From Escherichia phage LHE83: DNA of 64,000 bases. Made by a program: the position numbers and the translations under genes. The notes under the pieces were generated by a model. It made no database searches. It was given only the letters and a program-made list of their open reading frames with translations, and was not told the DNA's origin. Shown here piece by piece: positions 8,529 through 63,977 of this stretch; within the stretch, counting starts at the first letter, position 1, and the number at the start of each line of letters is the position of its first letter. The stretch lies in sequence record OQ561750. One strand, written 5' to 3'.

Positions 8529-8981
8529 ATGATTATCAATGCAAACTCTTGGCACGTTAAATTACACGACCGTTTTTATGACCGTCATTCTCGACCACAC
8601 TCTTTGTGTGCTTACTTCTGGAAAATGGTTTGGGCTTGTTTTGCTTGTGCTGTTGTTGCAGGTAGTACGCTTTTTGGATTAACTGTTGCAGGTGTTGGTG
8701 TATTAGAGCATTTCTTTGTATTAAGTACCCCTGTTCTGTTGAGTCTAGGGTTTGTTTTAGGATTGGTTGCAATAGCTCTTATTATTGCGCTATCCATTGG
8801 TTTGGCATTCGGTGTGATGAATTTACACTCATGGTATGATTTACGTAAAGAAGAAAAGGAATGGCAACTAATTAAAGCTAAACGTGAAGGAAAGGAAATT
8901 AAAGAAAACATTGTTATCCAATATATCAAAGCTCGTAAATCTAAGGTCTGTCCGGTAATCCACTTCGAGGACAAAGAATGA
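8529..8981 (+). CDS. hypothetical membrane protein
   Basis: ORF track; multiple hydrophobic segments. Confidence 0.55.
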   Translation: MIINANSWHVKLHDRFYDRHSRPHSLCAYFWKMVWACFACAVVAGSTLFGLTVAGVGVLEHFFVLSTPVLLSLGFVLGLVAIALIIALSIGLAFGVMNLHSWYDLRKEEKEWQLIKAKREGKEIKENIVIQYIKARKSKVCPVIHFEDKE

Positions 8982-9988
8982 GAACAGTTATGAAAGGCTA
9001 CTTCGGTAGCCACCTTTATGGAACAAGTACTCCAGAATCTGATGTCGATTTTAAAGAAATCTTTGTTCCACATCCGCGTGATATTCTGTTAGGTACGGCT
9101 ATGAACCATACCAACCTGAACACGAATAACACTGCTTCCAAAAACACCAAAGATGATGTAGACCATGAGCTTTACAGTCTGAAATATTTCTTTAAACTAG
9201 CGGCTGAAGGTGAAACCGTTGCTCTGGATATGCTTCACACTCCACCTGAACTAGTGGTTAAATCTGATTTACCTGATGTATGGAAATTTATCCAAGACAA
9301 CCGTTCTCGGTTCTATACAACCAACATGAAAGCCTATTTAGGGTACGTCCGTAAGCAAGCTTCTAAATATGGTGTTAAAGGTTCTCGTCTGGCTGCTCTG
9401 CGTGGTGTACTGGCAATCGTTAACCAGATTCCTGAACAGTGGATTGATTACCAAGAAGATGGTTCTACTAAACAACGTCGCACTAAGGTAGAAGATATCA
9501 AACATCGACTCCCTGAAAATGAGTTCTGTGAATGGGCATTCCATAACCATGAGAAAACAGGTCCTCAAACGTTCTATACTGTTCTCGGACGTAAATACCA
9601 AACCACTCTGTCATTAATCGAGCTCAAGCAATCTCTGAATAAGCTTGATGCCGAATATGGTGAACGTGCTCGTAAGGCTGAAGCTAACGAAGGTATTGAC
9701 TGGAAAGCTCTGAGCCATGCTTATCGTGCTGGTTATCAGTTGAAGGAAATCTATCAAACTGGTGACCTTCAATATCCTTTACGTACAGCGCCGTTTATCC
9801 TTGAAATCAAACAAGGGCTTCATGCTTTTAAAGATGTACAGGCCGAACTTGAAGCTATCGTTGATGAAGTCGAAACTAATGCTATCTGGGCCGCTAAGAA
9901 CGGTATGCCTGAGAAGGTAGACATGAAGTTCTGGGACAAGTTCGTTGAGCAGGTTTACCTAGAAAACCATAACTCGTATTATAAATGA
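8978..9988 (+). CDS. nucleotidyltransferase-fold protein (Pol-beta superfamily)
   Basis: N-terminal GSHLYGTSTPESDVDFKEIFV matches the G-S...D-x-D nucleotidyltransferase motif; ATGA overlap start. Confidence 0.55.
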   Translation: MRTVMKGYFGSHLYGTSTPESDVDFKEIFVPHPRDILLGTAMNHTNLNTNNTASKNTKDDVDHELYSLKYFFKLAAEGETVALDMLHTPPELVVKSDLPDVWKFIQDNRSRFYTTNMKAYLGYVRKQASKYGVKGSRLAALRGVLAIVNQIPEQWIDYQEDGSTKQRRTKVEDIKHRLPENEFCEWAFHNHEKTGPQTFYTVLGRKYQTTLSLIELKQSLNKLDAEYGERARKAEANEGIDWKALSHAYRAGYQLKEIYQTGDLQYPLRTAPFILEIKQGLHAFKDVQAELEAIVDEVETNAIWAAKNGMPEKVDMKFWDKFVEQVYLENHNSYYK

Positions 9989-9990
9989 TA

Positions 9991-10010
9991 AAGGCCTTCG
10001 GGCCTTTTTT
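9991..10010 (+). terminator. rho-independent terminator
   Basis: AAGGCC-TTCG-GGCC followed by TTTTTT. Confidence 0.6.
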
Positions 10011-10029
10011 GGGTTTAGTGCAAAAAAGA

Positions 10030-10060
10030 GTTTACACTCTCGTAGAGCATGTTATTATGG
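10030..10060 (+). promoter_or_regulatory. early promoter cassette
   Basis: GTTTAC then 17 nt then TGTTATTAT, then CCTATCAAA. Confidence 0.5.
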
Positions 10061-10095
10061 ACCTATCAAATCTACTGAGTGAAATGGAGAATATA

Positions 10096-11076
10096 ATGTT
10101 AACTATCAAAATCAACAAAGGTATCTATCGCGGTAATGTAATCTCTGGTACGTTCATGAGTTCAGGTAAAACCTGGTTCCCTAATAAAATTCATGAATCA
10201 GAAGCTCACCTCGGTGACGGCAAGGTATTCGTACAGATTGATGGTGTTGAACGTGGTGTATGGGTGTTCAAATGTGACGTTGAAATGGAAGGTGCTGAAG
10301 CTCCTGCAGTTGTTACTGAATCCGCTGAAGAAATGAAACATCGCATTAACAAACGTTTTAAAGTAATGAACATGATGACCAACGGAATCATCGATGGTAA
10401 AATTCGTTCCCTTATCATCTCTGGTGCCGCAGGTATTGGTAAAACGTATTCTTTGGATAAAGCATTACAAAATGCCCACGAAAATGAAACTATCGAATAT
10501 AAATCAATCAACGGAAAGATTAGTGGAATCGGTCTTTACGAGCAGCTTTGGAATAACCGCGGCCCTAATAGTGTTCTTCTTATTGATGATGTTGATGTAT
10601 TCTCTGATATGGATATCCTGAACCTGTTAAAAGCAGCATTGGATACCGGTGAAAAACGTAAGGTGTGCTGGAGCACTTCAAGTTCTTACCTCGATGATAA
10701 AAACATCGATAAAGAATTCGAATACGAAGGCACCATCGTGTTCATCACCAACGTTGATATCGACCGTGAATTAGAGCGTGGAACTAAACTTGCTCCACAC
10801 CTCCAGGCTTTAGTATCTCGTTCAGTTTACTTAGACCTCGGAGTTCACTCTAACGAAGAGATTATGGTCCGTGTTGAAGACGTTATCCTGTCCACTGATA
10901 TGATGCAAAACCGTGGTCTGACTGATGCCGAGACTTATCAAGCACTGTCCTGGATGAAGGCTAATGTATCTCGTCTTCGTAACGTATCATTACGTACAGC
11001 TCTTTATCTGGCGGACTTCATTGCCACCGATAAAAATGACTGGAGCGAAATCGCTGAAGTTACACTTCTGAAATAA
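10096..11076 (+). CDS. P-loop NTPase (Walker A GAAGIGKT, Walker B LLIDDVD)
   Basis: Start moved to the ATG after the terminator/promoter; track start 9985 reads through the terminator. Confidence 0.55.
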   Translation: MLTIKINKGIYRGNVISGTFMSSGKTWFPNKIHESEAHLGDGKVFVQIDGVERGVWVFKCDVEMEGAEAPAVVTESAEEMKHRINKRFKVMNMMTNGIIDGKIRSLIISGAAGIGKTYSLDKALQNAHENETIEYKSINGKISGIGLYEQLWNNRGPNSVLLIDDVDVFSDMDILNLLKAALDTGEKRKVCWSTSSSYLDDKNIDKEFEYEGTIVFITNVDIDRELERGTKLAPHLQALVSRSVYLDLGVHSNEEIMVRVEDVILSTDMMQNRGLTDAETYQALSWMKANVSRLRNVSLRTALYLADFIATDKNDWSEIAEVTLLK

Positions 11077-11086
11077 AGGTGAAATT

Positions 11087-11428
11087 ATGTTCGAACAATT
11101 TATTTACAATCTTTATAACGCAGGTCAGACTTTTTCCAAAGCCATGAAACAGTCTGTTGAAGACTATATTAATGAATGTAGTACTAAGTTTTCTGAGAAA
11201 TTCTATAAAAATCCGTGTAGTGGAGGAGACTTCAGGAGACTGCGCTTGGCCGTTAACACCCGGGCCTTAATAAATCTAGACCGCAAGCAGGTAAAGTTGG
11301 CAGGCGACTTCCGAGATGAACTCTGCGCCATCAGGAATGAATATCGCATTCGTATTGAACACCAACGGAAAGAGAACACTCAATCCGCATGGTTTAGTGG
11401 TCAAGCCGGTGAAAAAAGTTTCTATTAG
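11087..11428 (+). CDS. hypothetical protein
   Basis: ORF track. Confidence 0.5.
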   Translation: MFEQFIYNLYNAGQTFSKAMKQSVEDYINECSTKFSEKFYKNPCSGGDFRRLRLAVNTRALINLDRKQVKLAGDFRDELCAIRNEYRIRIEHQRKENTQSAWFSGQAGEKSFY

Positions 11429-11485: not shown

Positions 11486-12010
11486 ATGAACGCTAAAGAT
11501 ATTTTTTCACTGATTAATTTCAACAACGGTAATTTCAAATCTGAAAAACAAAGCAAGTTCTTTAATGATGTTGCTTGTGGTAATGAGATTACCGTATCTG
11601 GAGGAGAGATTTACAAAAGCCGTTGGAACTGGATTGTTATCATCGATTCAGTTGGTATTGTAGAGCTCTATAAAAACACTAACAAAAAACGTACTCTTCA
11701 CTGGAGTCGTGAAACCAATCAAGCTTATCAAGCTGAACGTAACAAACGTTTAATGCCTACCGAATCCGACCTGGCAAACGTTAAATCTGATATCGCTTAT
11801 TTCGATAATCTGATTGCAGAGGAACAAGCGGTTATTGATAAGTTTGACGAAATCAAAGCTTGTAAAGAGATTCCTGAATTTATGCGGGAATCAGTAAATG
11901 AACAGTACGCCCTCACTTCAGGTCGTATCGAGCAGTACAAATCGCAACGAGCTGAACGCCAAGCTCTGCTTCAGAAATTTGAAGAGCGTTTAAAGACGGT
12001 TCTCGCATAA
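11486..12010 (+). CDS. hypothetical protein with C-terminal coiled-coil tail
   Basis: ORF track. Confidence 0.5.
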   Translation: MNAKDIFSLINFNNGNFKSEKQSKFFNDVACGNEITVSGGEIYKSRWNWIVIIDSVGIVELYKNTNKKRTLHWSRETNQAYQAERNKRLMPTESDLANVKSDIAYFDNLIAEEQAVIDKFDEIKACKEIPEFMRESVNEQYALTSGRIEQYKSQRAERQALLQKFEERLKTVLA

Positions 12011-12073
12011 ACGCTTTATACCAAGGATGGTATAATGGTTTTAGGTTCTTAATTACTTACTGAGGAAATTATT

Positions 12074-12916
12074 ATGTCACAGGCAATTAATCAAATTCGT
12101 TCTGAAGTTAAAAAAGTTGTTAAATTTGGTCGTATTCCGAGTTCTAAAGAAGTGGTTGAAAAGGTTCTATATATGATGTGGGACAAGTTCAATGTTTGTA
12201 CTGTTAAAGATGACTTCACTAAAATCTTTGATAAGACCAGGTCGTTTACCTTAGAAGACCGGGTCATGAAAACTCTTCGTAAAACAGGTATGTTGTCTCG
12301 TGCTAATGCCAAAATTATTCTTAAAAATTATAACAAAGGCTACGACCTCTATGGTCGTTTAATCCCGGCGATGTCATTTGACGAAGTGGTTCAAGACCTT
12401 CATGCCAACCAACGACGTCTACTAGCACTAGGTGCTCGCCTTGCAAAAGGTCAAGATAAACAAATGACCTTTAAGACTAATGGTTCAGGTGATTGGATTA
12501 TCTTTAGTATTGTTAACCACCCCAGAAATGAAAATGAGTATACCATTTCAACTTTTAGTGGTTGTCAATATGACAACTGGAAGTTCCATCTCCGATTAGC
12601 CTTGTCCGAATTAGAACAGCACGGTGTTCTTGGTTTTGGTGATGCCGAAACTGGGGTGGGTCAGCGTATTAAACTTTATAAAATTAAAGACCTGGCTGAA
12701 GAGCATTCAGAACAAGCTCCTAAACCGGAACCTGTGCCAGTGCGCAGCAATGAGAAGCATCAAGCCCAGATTGAGTATTTTAGCAATTTGCTTACTTGCT
12801 TGAATGTTACAATTCAACAACAAGATGATGAGATTTTCCGACTCTCTGGTCTGAATGCTAAAGCCAAGGCTGAACGTCAAAAATATATCGATATCCTAAA
12901 TCTTCTTAAGGATTAA
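12074..12916 (+). CDS. hypothetical protein with C-terminal coiled-coil tail
   Basis: ORF track; start cassette duplicated at 19250-19283. Confidence 0.55.
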   Translation: MSQAINQIRSEVKKVVKFGRIPSSKEVVEKVLYMMWDKFNVCTVKDDFTKIFDKTRSFTLEDRVMKTLRKTGMLSRANAKIILKNYNKGYDLYGRLIPAMSFDEVVQDLHANQRRLLALGARLAKGQDKQMTFKTNGSGDWIIFSIVNHPRNENEYTISTFSGCQYDNWKFHLRLALSELEQHGVLGFGDAETGVGQRIKLYKIKDLAEEHSEQAPKPEPVPVRSNEKHQAQIEYFSNLLTCLNVTIQQQDDEIFRLSGLNAKAKAERQKYIDILNLLKD

Positions 12917-12918
12917 TT

Positions 12919-13134
12919 ATGGAAATTATTGGTTTTATTCTTGCTTATCTTGTGATAGGATTTATTACTGCTTTGATTGCGCATAAAACAGGCGCGTGGA
13001 ACCCGGTTAAAATTGAATCAAGCTATGATGCGGTATTCATTACATTTGTATGGCCAGTATTTTGCTTTGCCTGGTTATGTATGCTAATTCTGTGGCCTAT
13101 CGCTAAACTCTATGAAAAATTATTTGGACTCTGA
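12919..13134 (+). CDS. hypothetical small membrane protein
   Basis: ORF track; two hydrophobic segments. Confidence 0.5.
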   Translation: MEIIGFILAYLVIGFITALIAHKTGAWNPVKIESSYDAVFITFVWPVFCFAWLCMLILWPIAKLYEKLFGL

Positions 13135-13135
13135 T

Positions 13136-14005
13136 ATGAACATTAAAACACGTAAAGAATATTCCATCTATGACCATGACACGACTCGTCGTATCGCTAT
13201 CGATCGGCTGGCAGACTTTGGCCATATTTGTAATGGTAATTATACTTATGGTGTAGGTCGTAAAGGGACTTATATTAGTTCTTTGAACGATTATTGCCGT
13301 TGCCCTGCTCATTTATTTGGTGCAACACTGCGAGCTAATATCAAAGACCTCTTGGCTACCGCAGGACGTATTTCTACGGTTCCTGTCAATATCAAGAATA
13401 TTAATTTTACGGCTCGTAACCTAGTCATTAATATTCTGCCTGACGGTATTCAAGTTCGTTTCCGTCCCACCTCAAAAGGCAATAAGGCTCTTCGTGAAGC
13501 ATTCGAAACCTTATTCAGGGAAGCAATGACTCGTATTAAGGCAGTAGAATCATATAAAGTTACAACCGATGAATATGCTGATTGTTTTGAGCGGGCTGAT
13601 GCAGTTTATTTTAATATTAAACTAACTCGTGAATATCTTTTGTCTTATGCCCCTTATCAATCCCAACAAAAGGAACCACAAATGGAACGTCGTATCTCTG
13701 CAGTATCATGTGACAGCGTAGGCCAGTATGCAGCCTATGACAAATTCAAAACCACTGCTGTACCAAGCCCATTCAATTCCGAACCGTATCATTGGAAAAT
13801 TAAACCTGATAATTCTTTGGTTATTACTAACCCTACGATGAAACCTATCGAGAAGTATCATGAGGACCACCTCCAGGAATCAATCCACCGTTTAAACGGC
13901 CAGATCGAAGATGAGAAAAAGAGTATTCAAGACGTATTGATTCGCATCAAGAACATGGAACTCCAGCGTGACAAGCTCCGCGCGGCAGTATTAGCTCTAA
14001 AATAA
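13136..14005 (+). CDS. hypothetical protein with C-terminal coiled-coil tail
   Basis: ATG immediately after the upstream stop chosen over track start 13112. Confidence 0.55.
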   Translation: MNIKTRKEYSIYDHDTTRRIAIDRLADFGHICNGNYTYGVGRKGTYISSLNDYCRCPAHLFGATLRANIKDLLATAGRISTVPVNIKNINFTARNLVINILPDGIQVRFRPTSKGNKALREAFETLFREAMTRIKAVESYKVTTDEYADCFERADAVYFNIKLTREYLLSYAPYQSQQKEPQMERRISAVSCDSVGQYAAYDKFKTTAVPSPFNSEPYHWKIKPDNSLVITNPTMKPIEKYHEDHLQESIHRLNGQIEDEKKSIQDVLIRIKNMELQRDKLRAAVLALK

Positions 14006-14006
14006 T

Positions 14007-14040
14007 GTTTACATCCAAGGACGGATGGAGTATAATCTTT
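14007..14040 (+). promoter_or_regulatory. early promoter
   Basis: GTTTAC then TATAAT with about 19 nt spacing, then CTACTGAGGAG Shine-Dalgarno. Confidence 0.5.
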
Positions 14041-14063
14041 TTAAATCTACTGAGGAGAATATC

Positions 14064-15074
14064 ATGACTCGTACTGAATACATTAATGCCTTTACTACGT
14101 ATATCACTGCCAACACCCCTCCGTTAACCCCATACGAGGTAATAGTTTCTAATATCAATAAATGGGTCGACCAAATTGATGATGCATTATCGCGCTGTTT
14201 CAAAGCTGAAATCGAAAAGATTGCAGGCCGTTTGTGCATTCATGATATCATTAAAACATTTAAAGGTTCTCGACTGCTTTCGCGCCTGGTCAATAAGGAC
14301 ATCCTTTCTGAGTTCGGTAAAGAGAAATATCCAGGTTCCAACCGTGTTGTTAGCTACAAATGGTTTGGTGATACCATAAAAGGTTATATCAAAATTAAAG
14401 GTATGGACCCTAATAGTTTATTTCCGCAACGTTGGGTTAGCGAATTCAAGGCTAACTCTGCATTAATTCTCAAAGCGGCCTCTAAAACTATAGTTTCCGG
14501 TGATTGTCGTACTATTCACCCGATGGCTAATTGCATGATTAAAACAAATAGTTATAAAGGAAAAGCTATTATTTCTGTTATTTGGTCACCTAATAGGAAA
14601 CCTAAAGATGATGCGGAAGTTGTAAAGTATCAAGATATTGCTTACGATACCTTGAATACTATCGAACAAGCTTTAGCTCTGATGGATACCGTAGAGAAAT
14701 ATGAGACCCAAGAAGTTAAACACCACTTAGGCTGGAAAGGATATGAGGTCTTAGTAACAGTCCGTGAAATCAAATGTACCGTTCCAAAAACTGATGCTGA
14801 AATTTACAAAGAAAAATGTGAGGAAATTGTGAACACTGATAAAGAGCCTGCTACATTAGAAGATTTGATTAACGACTTGAACAGCCCTATCATGGCCCCT
14901 ACACCAATTACTAAATCCAAGTTACCGGAAGTCGTTGCCTTGGAAAAAGCGTATAAAGACGCCCTTGCTATCAACAAAAAACTGACTGGCCAATATACTG
15001 CTGCCAAGAAACTTTGGGAAGAGTCTACCAATCGTTTAGACCGTCTTGAACAGGCTCTGGAGCTGCTGAAATGA
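14064..15074 (+). CDS. hypothetical protein with C-terminal coiled-coil tail
   Basis: ATG after GAGGAG Shine-Dalgarno; track start 14025 lies inside the promoter. Confidence 0.55.
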   Translation: MTRTEYINAFTTYITANTPPLTPYEVIVSNINKWVDQIDDALSRCFKAEIEKIAGRLCIHDIIKTFKGSRLLSRLVNKDILSEFGKEKYPGSNRVVSYKWFGDTIKGYIKIKGMDPNSLFPQRWVSEFKANSALILKAASKTIVSGDCRTIHPMANCMIKTNSYKGKAIISVIWSPNRKPKDDAEVVKYQDIAYDTLNTIEQALALMDTVEKYETQEVKHHLGWKGYEVLVTVREIKCTVPKTDAEIYKEKCEEIVNTDKEPATLEDLINDLNSPIMAPTPITKSKLPEVVALEKAYKDALAINKKLTGQYTAAKKLWEESTNRLDRLEQALELLK

Positions 15075-15382
15075 AACAACGTTTAGCTGAAGATATTGCT
15101 TCAGCATCTAATACTGGTTTATTGAAATTTATTAAAGCCGCGGATGTTGAAGTTGAATTGGTTGGTAAAATTCATGGTTGTGATGATTATGATGATGCCG
15201 TTAATTGGGATGCTGTAATGGCTATGGTCGCACGACGAGAACAAGCTTCTAAGAATGTTCCTAACTGTCCTAAGTGCGGCACAGAACAGGTTCAATTGGT
15301 CCATTGGCAGACTAGTAATCTTCGTTACAAATGCCGCCATTGTAAACATAAATTTGAGCGAGAAGAAAATGGCAAAGCGTAA
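15071..15382 (+). CDS. hypothetical Zn-ribbon protein (CPKCG...CRHCKHKF)
   Basis: ORF track; ATGA overlap. Confidence 0.5.
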
Positions 15383-15606: not shown

Positions 15607-15870
15607 ATGTTTAAAGTTTATGGTTATGATTCAAATATTCACCGTTGTGTTTTCTGTGATAATGCCAAACGTCTGCTTGATGTTAAGAAACAACCTTACG
15701 AATTCATTAACGTGATGCCGGAAAAAGGCGTATTTGATGATGAGAAGATTGCTCAACTCCTGGCTGCGCTTGGTCGCGAATCTCAAATCGGTTTGACCAT
15801 GCCGCAAGTATTTGCCCCTGATGGAAGTCATATCGGTGGCTTTGACCAACTGCGAGCGTATTTCAAATGA
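15607..15870 (+). CDS. nrdC: glutaredoxin/thioredoxin NrdC
   Basis: 87 aa; VFCDNAKRLL...QVFAPDGSHIGGFDQL near-identical to T4 NrdC from memory. Confidence 0.85.
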   Translation: MFKVYGYDSNIHRCVFCDNAKRLLDVKKQPYEFINVMPEKGVFDDEKIAQLLAALGRESQIGLTMPQVFAPDGSHIGGFDQLRAYFK

Positions 15871-16685: not shown

Positions 16686-17159
16686 ATGTTGTTGACCGGC
16701 AAATTATACAAAGAAGAAAAACAAAAACTTTATGATGCACAATGTGGTAAGTGTTTGATTTGTAAACGTGAATTAAACCCTGATGTTCAAAGTAACCACC
16801 TTGACCACGACCATGAATTGAACGGGCCAAAAGCCGGTAAGGTTCGTGGTTTACTATGTAATCTGTGCAATGCTGCAGAAGGACAAATGAAGCATAAGTT
16901 CAACCGTTCTGGTCTTAAAGGTCAAAACGTTGACTACCTCGAATGGTTAGAGAATTTGCTGGTCTATCTGAAAGCTGATTATACTGAAAACAATATCCAT
17001 CCTAATTTCGTTCCTGATAAAACCAAAGAGTTCAGCAGGTTAGGTAAGGAAGAAATGATTGCTGAAATGCTTTCACATGGAATGACTTATAATGAATCTG
17101 ACACTAAGAAACAAATGGTCGATTCATTTAAAAAACAACTGAGGAAATCGCTTAAATGA
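16686..17159 (+). CDS. 49: endonuclease VII (Holliday-junction resolvase)
   Basis: 157 aa; MLLTGKLYKEEKQK...HLDHDHELNGPKAGKVRGLLCNLCNAAEG near-identical to T4 gp49 from memory. Confidence 0.9.
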   Translation: MLLTGKLYKEEKQKLYDAQCGKCLICKRELNPDVQSNHLDHDHELNGPKAGKVRGLLCNLCNAAEGQMKHKFNRSGLKGQNVDYLEWLENLLVYLKADYTENNIHPNFVPDKTKEFSRLGKEEMIAEMLSHGMTYNESDTKKQMVDSFKKQLRKSLK

Positions 17160-41385: not shown

Positions 41386-41607
41386 ATGTTTGTTTTAACT
41401 CAATTCTCTAAAGCGGTATATGGTTACTCCTGCCAGTGGGAAGTCTTTATCGATTCTCCTTCACCTAAGTACGGTGTTTTTGGACGAGTAACTACTCAAG
41501 CTTATGTTGCACGGCCTACTAAGCGCCAGCTTCGTAAACTTAAAAAGGCCCATCGCCAACTGATTGAAAGAAGGGAACAATATGAGTGCAATGTGTACGG
41601 GCTCTAA
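41386..41607 (+). CDS. hypothetical basic protein
   Basis: ORF track. Confidence 0.5.
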   Translation: MFVLTQFSKAVYGYSCQWEVFIDSPSPKYGVFGRVTTQAYVARPTKRQLRKLKKAHRQLIERREQYECNVYGL

Positions 41608-62597: not shown

Positions 62598-63977
62598 ATG
62601 GCTGATGTAATTGATACCCTTTTTAAACAGGCTTTAGATGTTTACGATGATTCTTTCACTCGTCGTGACTTAAAAAGTATTATCGACAACGAAGCATTGG
62701 CTTATGCAATGTATACTGTCGAAAACCGAGCCATTCCAAATATGATTGATGGCTTTAAACCTGTACAACGTTTTGTAGTGGCTCGTTGTCTTGATATGGC
62801 TCGTGGTAATAAAGAAAAATTCCACAAACTGGCTTCTATCGCTGGTGGTGTAGCCGACCTCGGATATCACCACGGTGAAGGTTCTGCTCAGGAAGCAGGG
62901 GCTTTGATGGCTAACACATGGAACAACAACTATCCATTGTTAGACGGTCAAGGTAACTTCGGTTCTCGATTGGTTCAAAAGGCTGCAGCCTCTCGTTATA
63001 TTTTTGCTCGTATCGGAAGTAACTTTGCAAAAGTTTATAAGGACACAGAATATGCTCCGGTTCATGCGGATGTCGAACATAAGCCACCGGCTTTTTATCT
63101 GCCTATTATTCCTACTGTTCTTCTTAATGGCGTTTCCGGTATTGCAACTGGTTATGCAACTAATATTCTTCCTCATAGTTTTGATTCTGTTAAGAAAGCT
63201 GTACTGCAAGTTCTTCAGGAAAAACGAGTAACCAAACCCAAAGTGGCTTATCCTGAATTCCGTGGTGAAGTTGTTGAGATTGAACCTGGTAGTTATGAGA
63301 TTCGTGGAACGTATAAGTTCACATCCCGAACCCAAATGCATATCACGGAAATCCCATACAAATACGACCGTGAAACATATGTGGCTAAGGTATTAGACCC
63401 TCTGGAAGACAAAGGGTATATCACATATGATGATGACTGTGACGAGAACGGTTTTGGCTTCAAGGTTAAGATTCGTAAAGAATACGAATTGCCTACCGAA
63501 GAAAACAAGAAGCATGAAAAAATCATGAAGGACTTCGGGTTAATCGAACGTCGTTCACAAAACCTGACCGTCATTAATGAAAAAGGTAAACTTAAGGTTT
63601 ACGAAGATGCAGTTGAACTGATTCGTGATTTCGTTGAGGTCCGTAAGACCTTTGTACAAAAACGTATTGATGGTAAAATCATCGAAACCGAAGAAGCTTT
63701 TAAACTAGCATTGGCTAAAGCCACATTCATCAAAGATGTTATTGACGGGACTGTAGTTATCCAAGGTAAGACTCGTAAGGTTTTAACTGAGGAATTGGCT
63801 GGTAATAAAGTCTACGGCGAATACGCTGATAAACTGGTTGCAATGAACATTTTCCATATCACATCCGATGAAGCCAAGAAACTGGCCCTCGAAGCCAAGG
63901 CTAAGAAAGAAGAGCATCAATACTGGAAATCTACTGATGTGGTAACTGAGTATGTTAAAGATTTGGAGGCTCTATGA
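62598..63977 (+). CDS. 52: DNA topoisomerase II medium subunit gp52 (GyrA-like)
   Basis: 459 aa; N-terminus YAMYTVENRAIPNMIDGFKPVQRF (GyrA signature); active-site region SRYIFARI. Confidence 0.9.
   Translation: MADVIDTLFKQALDVYDDSFTRRDLKSIIDNEALAYAMYTVENRAIPNMIDGFKPVQRFVVARCLDMARGNKEKFHKLASIAGGVADLGYHHGEGSAQEAGALMANTWNNNYPLLDGQGNFGSRLVQKAAASRYIFARIGSNFAKVYKDTEYAPVHADVEHKPPAFYLPIIPTVLLNGVSGIATGYATNILPHSFDSVKKAVLQVLQEKRVTKPKVAYPEFRGEVVEIEPGSYEIRGTYKFTSRTQMHITEIPYKYDRETYVAKVLDPLEDKGYITYDDDCDENGFGFKVKIRKEYELPTEENKKHEKIMKDFGLIERRSQNLTVINEKGKLKVYEDAVELIRDFVEVRKTFVQKRIDGKIIETEEAFKLALAKATFIKDVIDGTVVIQGKTRKVLTEELAGNKVYGEYADKLVAMNIFHITSDEAKKLALEAKAKKEEHQYWKSTDVVTEYVKDLEAL

Follow-up and report, generated by a model that had tools for sequence, protein, structure and literature searches.

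The DNA considered here is a stretch of 64,000 nucleotides of Escherichia phage LHE83 (sequence record OQ561750), called the window throughout, in which four genes on the plus strand, P1 (11486-12010, 174 amino acids (aa)), P2 (12074-12916, 280 aa), P3 (13136-14005, 289 aa) and P4 (14064-15074, 336 aa), encode proteins that each end in a charged helical tail. P2, P3 and P4 are tandem paralogs that have diverged from one another; their homology extends over the full length of the proteins, and they belong to the group formed by T4 NrdC.3, NrdC.4, NrdC.5 and NrdC.6, with P3 placed in this group on the strength of sequence profiles. P1 appears to be a separate, well-conserved small protein with no detectable relationship to the other three. 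Since the bodies of P2-P4 are homologous and the single copies found in distant genera already have the tail, the tail has come down together with the body from a single ancestral protein and is not a shuffled module. On balance, the three paralogs would form a diversifying array of counter-defence genes. A first-pass annotation of the region, made from the letters alone, had picked out the four open reading frames (ORFs) starting at 11486, 12074, 13136 and 14064 (174-336 aa) and quoted C-terminal strings from them, and both the frames and the strings are exact. What it observed largely holds, and the function it proposed is plausible; where it goes wrong is in the structural reading of three of the four proteins.

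By BLASTP against T4, P1 is the ortholog of NrdC.8 (70% identity) and P2 is a paralog of the NrdC.6 family (49% identity to T4 NrdC.6 over residues 59-237). P3 belongs to the NrdC.5 family, with 25% identity to T4 NrdC.5 (E=1e-17), the same place in the gene order and the comparable ends KLRAAVLALK in P3 and KLNNALNALN in T4. P4 belongs to the NrdC.4 family (44% identity to T4 NrdC.4) and its N-terminal part is also related to T4 NrdC.3 (E=2e-7). Residues 1-289 of P3 match Pfam PF23882 (DUF7235) at 391.6 bits, against a cut-off of 30 (E=3.7e-117), and the same family is present on all database homologs of P3. Precomputed memberships place PF26899 on database protein P0039, which is 100% identical to P2, and PF26897 on P0001, which is 98% identical to P4, as well as on all other P4 matches; the copy of Pfam that was searched does not hold the PF26897 and PF26899 models and returned no match for P2 or P4. 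P1 is a member of phrog_2274, a family of unknown function, and has no Pfam match above threshold. NCBIfam gave nothing, and no significant relative was found among all PDB chains, a set expected to contain the DSR2-DSAD1 complexes, in sequence searches with P3 and with the P2 and P4 family alignments. The genes are already in GenBank as hypothetical proteins, and for the T4 member of P3's Pfam DUF a phenotype has been published. Two things appear to be new: the joining of four separate database families, nrdC.3, nrdC.4, nrdC.5 and nrdC.6, into one tandem-paralog superfamily, and the recognition of a strongly constrained C-terminal helix as the hallmark of that superfamily.

The N-terminal domains of the four proteins had been described as unrelated. 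Indeed, pairwise BLASTP among P1-P4 gave nothing significant at permissive settings, word-indexed protein searches returned close family members only, with no cross-family matches, and a search with P3 for related loci in viral contigs found only 6 close relatives. The impression of unrelated domains arose because single-sequence BLASTP is blind to the links, which appear when profiles of the nrdC.3, nrdC.4, nrdC.5, nrdC.6 and nrdC.8 families (F3, F4, F5, F6 and F8) are compared. Between the nrdC.4 and nrdC.3 profiles the match has a probability of 97.6% (E=3e-12), and this was the only link that was clear in a first pass of hhalign with shallow alignments, the others needing bridging sequences from distant genera. 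With the bridging sequences included, the bodies of F6 align with F3+F4 at 93.5% probability (E=2.4e-7; reversed control 0.17) and those of F5 at 86.9% (E=4.2e-6; reversed control 0.13), and full-length F5 aligns with F3+F4 at 94.7% (E=6.3e-8) across 240 columns that run to the C-terminus. An exhaustive HMMER search with the nrdC.4 profile against 1.84 billion representative proteins recovered nrdC.3 at E=4e-6, in a protein (P0195) with 96% identity to T4 NrdC.3, and returned no match at a greater distance.

Structure comparison and single-copy relatives point the same way. In Foldseek searches of predicted viral structures, the models of P2 and P4 match the same uncharacterised proteins of 300-335 aa (E=1e-5 to 1e-9), which come from T4-like phages of Enterobacter, Pectobacterium, Acinetobacter, Yersinia and Serratia, and the P4 model also matches the nrdC.6-family protein of phage Sf25 (3.9e-4). 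One PHROGs family, phrog_26858, is matched by the body of P4 and by the tail of P3. The single-copy members bridge the families, with links from CBH8 to F5 (5e-7) and F4 (0.01), from TG1 to F6 (8e-4) and F3 (0.05), from KpV477 to F4 (0.015) and F3 (0.06), and from CW742 to F6 (6e-8). The paralog copies are themselves highly diverged, with 14-25% identity. The unrelatedness of the N-terminal domains therefore does not hold among P2, P3 and P4, given the shared Foldseek matches of P2 and P4 and the profile matches, and possibly does hold for P1 against the rest.

AlphaFold2 monomer models of P2 and P4, built on family alignments (predicted local distance difference test (pLDDT) 78.3 for P2 and 81.8 for P4), run through the same elements in order, beginning with a five-helix bundle and a helix pair, continuing with beta-hairpin/helix units and a linker, and ending in a terminal helix. 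In P2, a predicted disordered linker of residues 207-227 (12692-12754, plus strand; pLDDT <50) is followed by a kinked C-terminal helix of residues 230-280 (12761-12913, plus strand), modelled as helices 230-259 and 262-279 and ending in YIDILNLLKD. Few parts of the family alignment are as well conserved as this helix. In P4, the linker comprises residues 273-286 (14880-14921, plus strand; pLDDT <50), and residues 288-336 (14925-15071, plus strand) form a single long C-terminal helix, modelled from 288 to 335. The C-terminal 48 residues of P3 (13859-14002, plus strand) make a coiled-coil-like tail ending in KLRAAVLALK.

It was on the likeness of these ends that a mobile C-terminal oligomerisation or targeting module, shuffled onto four unrelated effector domains, had been proposed. 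All four proteins do end in charged, heptad-like helices, Pfam and PHROGs assign P1-P4 to separate families (phrog_1435 and phrog_2257 for the P2 and P4 types, with T4 NrdC.3, NrdC.4 and NrdC.6), single-sequence BLASTP finds no similarity among them, and fusions that keep the tail do occur, as in the Manna hybrid and the P0190 mosaic described below. A shuffled module is nevertheless very improbable, because the bodies of P2-P4 are homologous at both the fold and the profile level, the alignments are collinear from the body to the C-terminus, the single gene of distant genera already has the full architecture, and the tail of P1 is not demonstrably homologous to the others. Tandem paralogy accounts for P2-P4, and the tail of P1, which is not significantly similar to theirs, does not restore the idea of a common module.

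The four tails themselves are real; they are helical, and they stand out within this genome. Gene comparisons within the window were made over 113 non-overlapping ORFs, P1-P4 and 109 others. For the content of E, K, R, Q and L in the last 40 residues, P1-P4 rank 1, 11, 5 and 3 of the 113, and for a custom heptad score they rank 1, 15, 2 and 4 (Mann-Whitney p ~8e-4 for each of the two measures). When the null is taken from composition-preserving shuffles of each protein's own residues, the heptad order itself stands out in P1 (p=0.010), P3 (p=0.0065) and P4 (p=0.041). The models give P4 a single terminal helix of 48 residues and P2 a kinked one of 50 residues, each standing isolated after its disordered linker, in keeping with a canonical coiled coil. 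The description of the C-termini as charged and heptad-like was thus borne out, both by these ranks and by the end helices modelled for P2 and P4. Heptad scores of 5.0-5.5, comparable to those of the four tails, are also seen in the plus-strand ORFs at 41386-41607, 655-957 and 62598-63977.

Likeness between the tails was addressed with a leave-one-family-out position matrix, anchored at the C-terminus and covering the last 12 residues, for which the null was given by shuffles of each protein's own tail and by 104 C-termini. P3 (z=4.7) and P4 (z=4.1) each rank 1 of the 104, and first place also goes to T4 NrdC.3 (z=5.0) and to a homolog from a distant Serratia phage (z=4.1), with P1 at z=1.5 (p=0.08). 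In an hhalign column-shuffle test, the F5 tail matches the F3+F4 tail at z=3.9, a value reached in 0/100 shuffles, over 39 columns to the C-terminus, and the same test of the F8 tail against F3+F4 gave nothing. An end motif, [L/Y]-x-x-[A/I/S]-[L/I/V]-x-x-L-[K/N], recurs in the nrdC.3, nrdC.4, nrdC.5 and nrdC.6 types, and the proteins of the more distant CBH8 and TG1 have it too.

The tail is also the more strongly constrained part of these proteins. Across genera, identity in P3 and P4 is 0.65-0.78 in the tail and 0.43-0.49 in the body, and within the nrdC.4 family conservation is 0.92 over the last 20 residues and 0.53 over the body. Database protein P0191 is only ~30% identical to P4 overall, yet 19/20 of the last residues of P4 match. 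Nonsynonymous divergence (dN) in the body exceeds that in the tail two- to three-fold, and both regions have diverged or saturated synonymous sites, which indicates that the constraint acts on the protein. A DNA-level signal in this position, such as a promoter for the next gene, is ruled out as the cause of the conservation by the same high or saturated synonymous divergence and low dN. Conservation is highest at the a/d core positions of the tail helix (0.85-0.98). Outward-facing b/c/f positions, at 0.67-0.76, are conserved above the body mean in F4-F6, which hints that the helix does more than self-associate.

P1 differs from this pattern. Its N-terminal region is small and its C-terminal half is helical, the last 48 residues (11864-12007, plus strand) forming a charged, heptad-like tail that ends in FEERLKTVLA. 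Its omega of ~0.1-0.17 indicates strong constraint, against 0.3-0.5 for P2-P4. No link to any other family was found by hhalign (E>=0.04), and the end motif, in the form L-x-x-A-[LIV]-x-x-L-K, is absent from P1 and NrdC.8. Residues 103-122 do locally resemble the start of the nrdC.6 tail (z=3.2, 0/100 column shuffles), and a weak alignment of P1 21-61 with F6 160-209 is collinear with that similarity. Together with the finding of NrdC.8 only in genera in which the family is expanded, these similarities would suit a P1 that is a truncated family member, comprising the last beta unit, linker and tail, and hence a common ancestry of all four genes. Such an origin is distinctly unlikely: over the full search space the signal falls inside the null (6/100 and 14/100 shuffles), there is no profile link at E<0.04, the end motif is missing and the constraint is much stronger than in P2-P4. 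The truncated-copy reading was dropped as unsupported after the column-shuffle calibration. The likeness of the P1 tail to the other three would then be one of composition and helical periodicity only.

The number of family members at the locus varies among the T4-like phages, to which the family is restricted in the exhaustive HMMER search. There are four in T4 and T2 (nrdC.3-.6), three in Dhakaviruses, Gapriverviruses and RB69, two in Salmonella phage Manna, and one in Winkler-, Teguna-, Jiaoda- and Karamviruses, within the regions fetched. The window has no NrdC.3-type copy. In CBH8, TG1, KpV477 and CW742 a single member lies between nrdC.10 and nrdC. Every one of these members has a coiled-coil tail, and two of the tails end in LKKAIEVLIG and LQESLRALK; none of the other neighbours in these four regions qualifies as a family member. 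The family has been duplicated to three to four copies in Tequatro-, Dhaka-, Gapriver- and Mosigviruses, and NrdC.8 is found only in genera with the expanded family. Directly upstream of the single member in Winkler-, Jiaoda- and Karamviruses there is a conserved gene of 257-272 aa (locus L017 at 11974, L019 at 11799 and L020 at 12691), which lacks a coiled-coil tail (...FEHAKDDSTHSFFKRPS...) and could not be linked to the family (E>=0.02).

Besides duplication, the array has been altered by deletion, fusion and frameshift. In Manna (PP987310, locus L009, 6203-7240), a 345-aa hybrid joins the nrdC.6 body and half of its tail helix in frame to the linker and tail of nrdC.4, with the fusion joint at a DDEI/CDEI microhomology and with nrdC.5 and most of nrdC.4 deleted. 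NrdC.6 of Shigella phage Sf25 (P0127, 378 aa) has a C-terminal 120 residues that repeat T2 NrdC.6 177-296, such that ~82 residues (T2 177-259) are present twice. A metagenomic protein of 336 aa, P0190, has a C-terminal half that is 92% identical to a Gaprivervirus nrdC.5-type protein, and an N-terminal 178 residues that match none of the families. In the reference T4 genome, nrdC.6 (L002, NC_000866 52066-52893) has a 1-nucleotide deletion relative to T2, GAGCTGAATATTTC having become GAGCTGATATTTC, so that the annotated protein ends early and the intact tail (EREKLIKIVDLLKS, followed by the stop) is readable in another frame. The tail of RB69 nrdC.5 (L016, NC_004928 51070-51972) is likewise out of frame (YSKLFNAMNALKS, followed by the stop). 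Programmed frameshifting before the tail was considered for these two genes and is less likely; mutation or sequencing error is simpler, because the intact 296-aa form of NrdC.6 dominates the database (cluster P0128, 940 member sequences). Escherichia phage vB_EcoM_005 (L006, an IMG/VR contig of 155,101 bp; ORFs 4448, 5977 and 6783) has in-frame deletions in the tails of its P1 and P4 homologs, the tail of the P1 homolog reading ...EIPEFMERLKTVLA, and a shortened P3 homolog (268 aa). These deletions could be real, in a reduced genome, or could be assembly artefacts.

A function for one member of this family has been reported. A T4 clone with compensatory deletions is unable to plate on ECOR17, and equally on MG1655 into which dsr1, a SIR2 defence gene of ECOR17, has been introduced, and plasmid-supplied T4 nrdC.5, which is called an early gene, restores plating on MG1655 with dsr1 (Srikant et al. 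eLife 2022, PMC9391042). That paper gives no mechanism for NrdC.5 and does not mention the paralogs or the tail, and a search of the accessible literature found no later paper with a mechanism, a structure, a new name or paralogs of nrdC.5. Fast-evolving bodies, flux in copy number, restriction to one lineage and the presence of one counter-defence member together make a diversifying, expandable counter-defence gene array the best supported reading of P2-P4. We regard it as reasonably probable, and the anti-defence role would then extend to P2, P3 and P4 themselves. The host-takeover or anti-defence role proposed in the first-pass annotation is thus plausible for the array, with genetic evidence available for the T4 nrdC.5 member only.

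Under this counter-defence reading, a single ancestral gene encoding an N-terminal helical bundle, an alpha/beta region, a flexible linker and a long amphipathic C-terminal helix would have been duplicated, and the resulting array altered by deletions, fusions, frameshifts and internal duplications. The paralogs would be early-expressed accessory proteins, in line with the promoter-like site before P4 and the description of nrdC.5 as early, whose fast-evolving bodies, by analogy with DSAD1, may bind different host targets, chiefly anti-phage defence proteins, T4 NrdC.5 against the Dsr1 SIR2 nicotinamide adenine dinucleotide hydrolase (NADase) being the one demonstrated case of counter-defence. 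The conserved tail may form a coiled-coil oligomer, dock on a conserved partner, or both, and so provide avidity or localisation. Each paralog could then be specialised for a different target, with copy number and sequence tracking the defence repertoires of the hosts. A narrower version, in which the tail helix serves for docking, not simply for self-association, and recruits the diversifying bodies to one conserved host or phage hub, so that each paralog disarms a different immune system, Dsr1 being the first target known, is unlikely. On that version NrdC.8 would be a conceivable helical partner, because it is found only in genera with the expanded family.

Several observations count against parts of this account. 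The heptad order of the P2 tail is not above that of its shuffles (p=0.18) and its position-matrix score is low (z=0.6, p=0.26); similarly, the F6 tail matches the F3+F4 tail only marginally (z=2.0, 6/100 shuffles, over the last 11 residues only). Likeness of the tails beyond composition, as originally claimed, is consequently upheld for P3 and P4 but not for P2 or P1. The link of the P3 family to the others depends on sequence profiles that need bridging sequences. One T4 member and one RB69 member have the tail out of frame, which would mean either that the tail is dispensable in laboratory hosts or that these are sequencing errors. The anti-defence phenotype is limited to T4 NrdC.5, which is just 25% identical to P3, and the nrdC.3, nrdC.4, nrdC.6 and nrdC.8 types have no reported phenotype. 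Since the identity is so low, P3 may differ in specificity from T4 NrdC.5.

It is also possible, if doubtful, that the tails are generic coiled coils serving solubility or self-association, that most of the paralogs have non-defence roles, for example in nucleic-acid or nucleotide metabolism, and that the connection of NrdC.5 with Dsr1 is special or indirect. Only one member has a defence phenotype, reported with no mechanism, and no family was matched by any of P1-P4 in PADLOC at E<=0.1 or among anti-defence families. The neighbouring NrdC, NrdC.11, NrdC.10 and endonuclease VII genes, moreover, are nucleotide-metabolism or DNA-processing genes. Against a metabolic role, the bodies evolve fast (omega 0.3-0.5), copy number ranges from 1 to 4, and fusion, truncation and deletion are repeated, a pattern usual for accessory genes of host range but not for metabolic genes. 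The b/c/f positions of the tail are conserved beyond what a generic coiled coil needs, and the family is absent outside the T4-like phages.

If nrdC.3-.6 are one diversifying family with a constrained terminal helix, the counter-defence reading would put forward another three or four candidate genes in each phage. They lie in a part of the genome of T4, the best-studied phage, from nrdC to mobD, where no gene has an assigned function apart from the genetic link of nrdC.5 to Dsr1. It would also provide a rationale for screening each paralog against collections of defence systems.

The joining of these families corrects a widespread mislabelling as 'thioredoxin' or 'reductase', which has already leaked into the interpretation of transcriptomes. 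Homologs of nrdC.4, nrdC.5, nrdC.6, nrdC.8 and nrdC.10 are labelled 'thioredoxin' in many GenBank records of T4-like phages, a label that appears to have been carried over from the 'nrdC.x' locus names. There are no thioredoxin-family matches for P1-P4 in Pfam or NCBIfam, and the order of secondary-structure elements in the AlphaFold2 models of P2 and P4, a helical bundle with beta-hairpin/helix units, is not that of a thioredoxin. The T4 nrdC.8 mRNA is reported to be down-regulated in DRT1-expressing cells, where it has been discussed beside 'nucleotide reductases' (PMC13275509). NrdC.8 and P1 have no detectable similarity to reductases, and the reductase reading in that paper appears to rest on the gene name alone.

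In DNA sequence the window shares 99% identity with Escherichia phage QL01 and ~90-98% with further Dhakaviruses such as WG01, IME08 and Bp7. By these comparisons it belongs to a T4-like Dhakavirus, with P1-P4 lying in the 'nrdC.x' block of T4-like phages. Its plus strand holds 108 of the 113 non-overlapping ORFs, and over positions 1-64000 there are no tRNA genes detectable by ARAGORN and no Rfam families at the gathering threshold. Upstream of P1 are NrdC.11, an RlaP-like nucleotidyltransferase (8978-9988, plus strand), NrdC.10, an AAA/STAND-like P-loop ATPase with a possible C-terminal helix-turn-helix (9985-11076, plus strand), and a NrdC.9-like DUF7203 protein (11087-11428). Downstream of P4 are the NrdC.2 zinc ribbon (15071-15382), the NrdC glutaredoxin (15607-15870) and endonuclease VII (16686-17159), with NrdC.1 also among the neighbours. 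NrdC.10 is conserved in 1311 phage records, including those of Vibrio phages and of large genomes (290-380 kb), a spread far broader than that of the nrdC.3-.6 and nrdC.8 families; no ORF of its size is annotated or found at the syntenic position in Gapriverviruses MN01, DK-13, P896 and RZ.

Between P2 and P3 lies a gene for a predicted membrane protein of 71 aa (12919-13134, plus strand; phrog_7899, function unknown), the TGA stop of which (13132-13134) is one base before the P3 ATG at 13136. Because of this single-base spacing, the arrangement suggests translational coupling of P3 with the upstream ORF. If P3 started instead at an ATG further upstream, at 13112, it would overlap the 71-aa ORF. 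In T4, a different membrane protein, NrdC.7, is encoded between nrdC.8 and nrdC.6. Upstream of P4 there is a near-consensus sigma-70 or T4-early-like promoter sequence (14008-14036, plus strand), composed of TTTACA, a 17-nucleotide spacer and TATAAT with 11/12 consensus matches, and a GAGGA ribosome-binding site stands 7 nucleotides before the P4 ATG at 14064. Promoter-like sites are no more numerous in the region overall than in shuffles, and the 14008-14036 site is a consensus match only.

Among known systems, the closest is T4 NrdC.5 itself, which has in common with P3 the Pfam family, the position in the gene order, the layout of body, linker and tail, and the end motif; it differs in sequence, with 25% identity, and it is for the T4 protein that anti-Dsr1 activity has been reported. 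T4 NrdC.4 and NrdC.6 have the same locus, order and architecture as P4 and P2, although the reference T4 NrdC.6 differs from P2 in having lost its tail through the 1-nucleotide deletion. T4 NrdC.3, NrdC.4 and NrdC.6 are separate database families of unknown function, here joined with NrdC.5. DSAD1, a phage protein, inhibits the SIR2-domain, NAD-depleting defence DSR2 by direct binding, and is a possible functional analogue of NrdC.5-type proteins, with no homology indicated. The T4 internal proteins IPI, IPII and IPIII carry a common N-terminal, cleaved capsid-targeting segment on different anti-defence cargo, which directs packaging into the head. They are the classic T4 case of a short targeting segment on different cargo, the pattern that the first-pass annotation had envisaged; P2-P4 differ in having a long C-terminal helix, homologous bodies and no sign of packaging. 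The P2-P4 array resembles the 'gene accordions' and host-range multigene families of viruses, in which accessory genes pressed by host defences undergo tandem duplication, rapid divergence and loss or fusion. It differs from amplification of the kind seen in the segmental amplification of tifA in T4 (PMC9391042) in that its copies are ancient, with 14-25% identity between them, and in that the terminal helix has been kept throughout.

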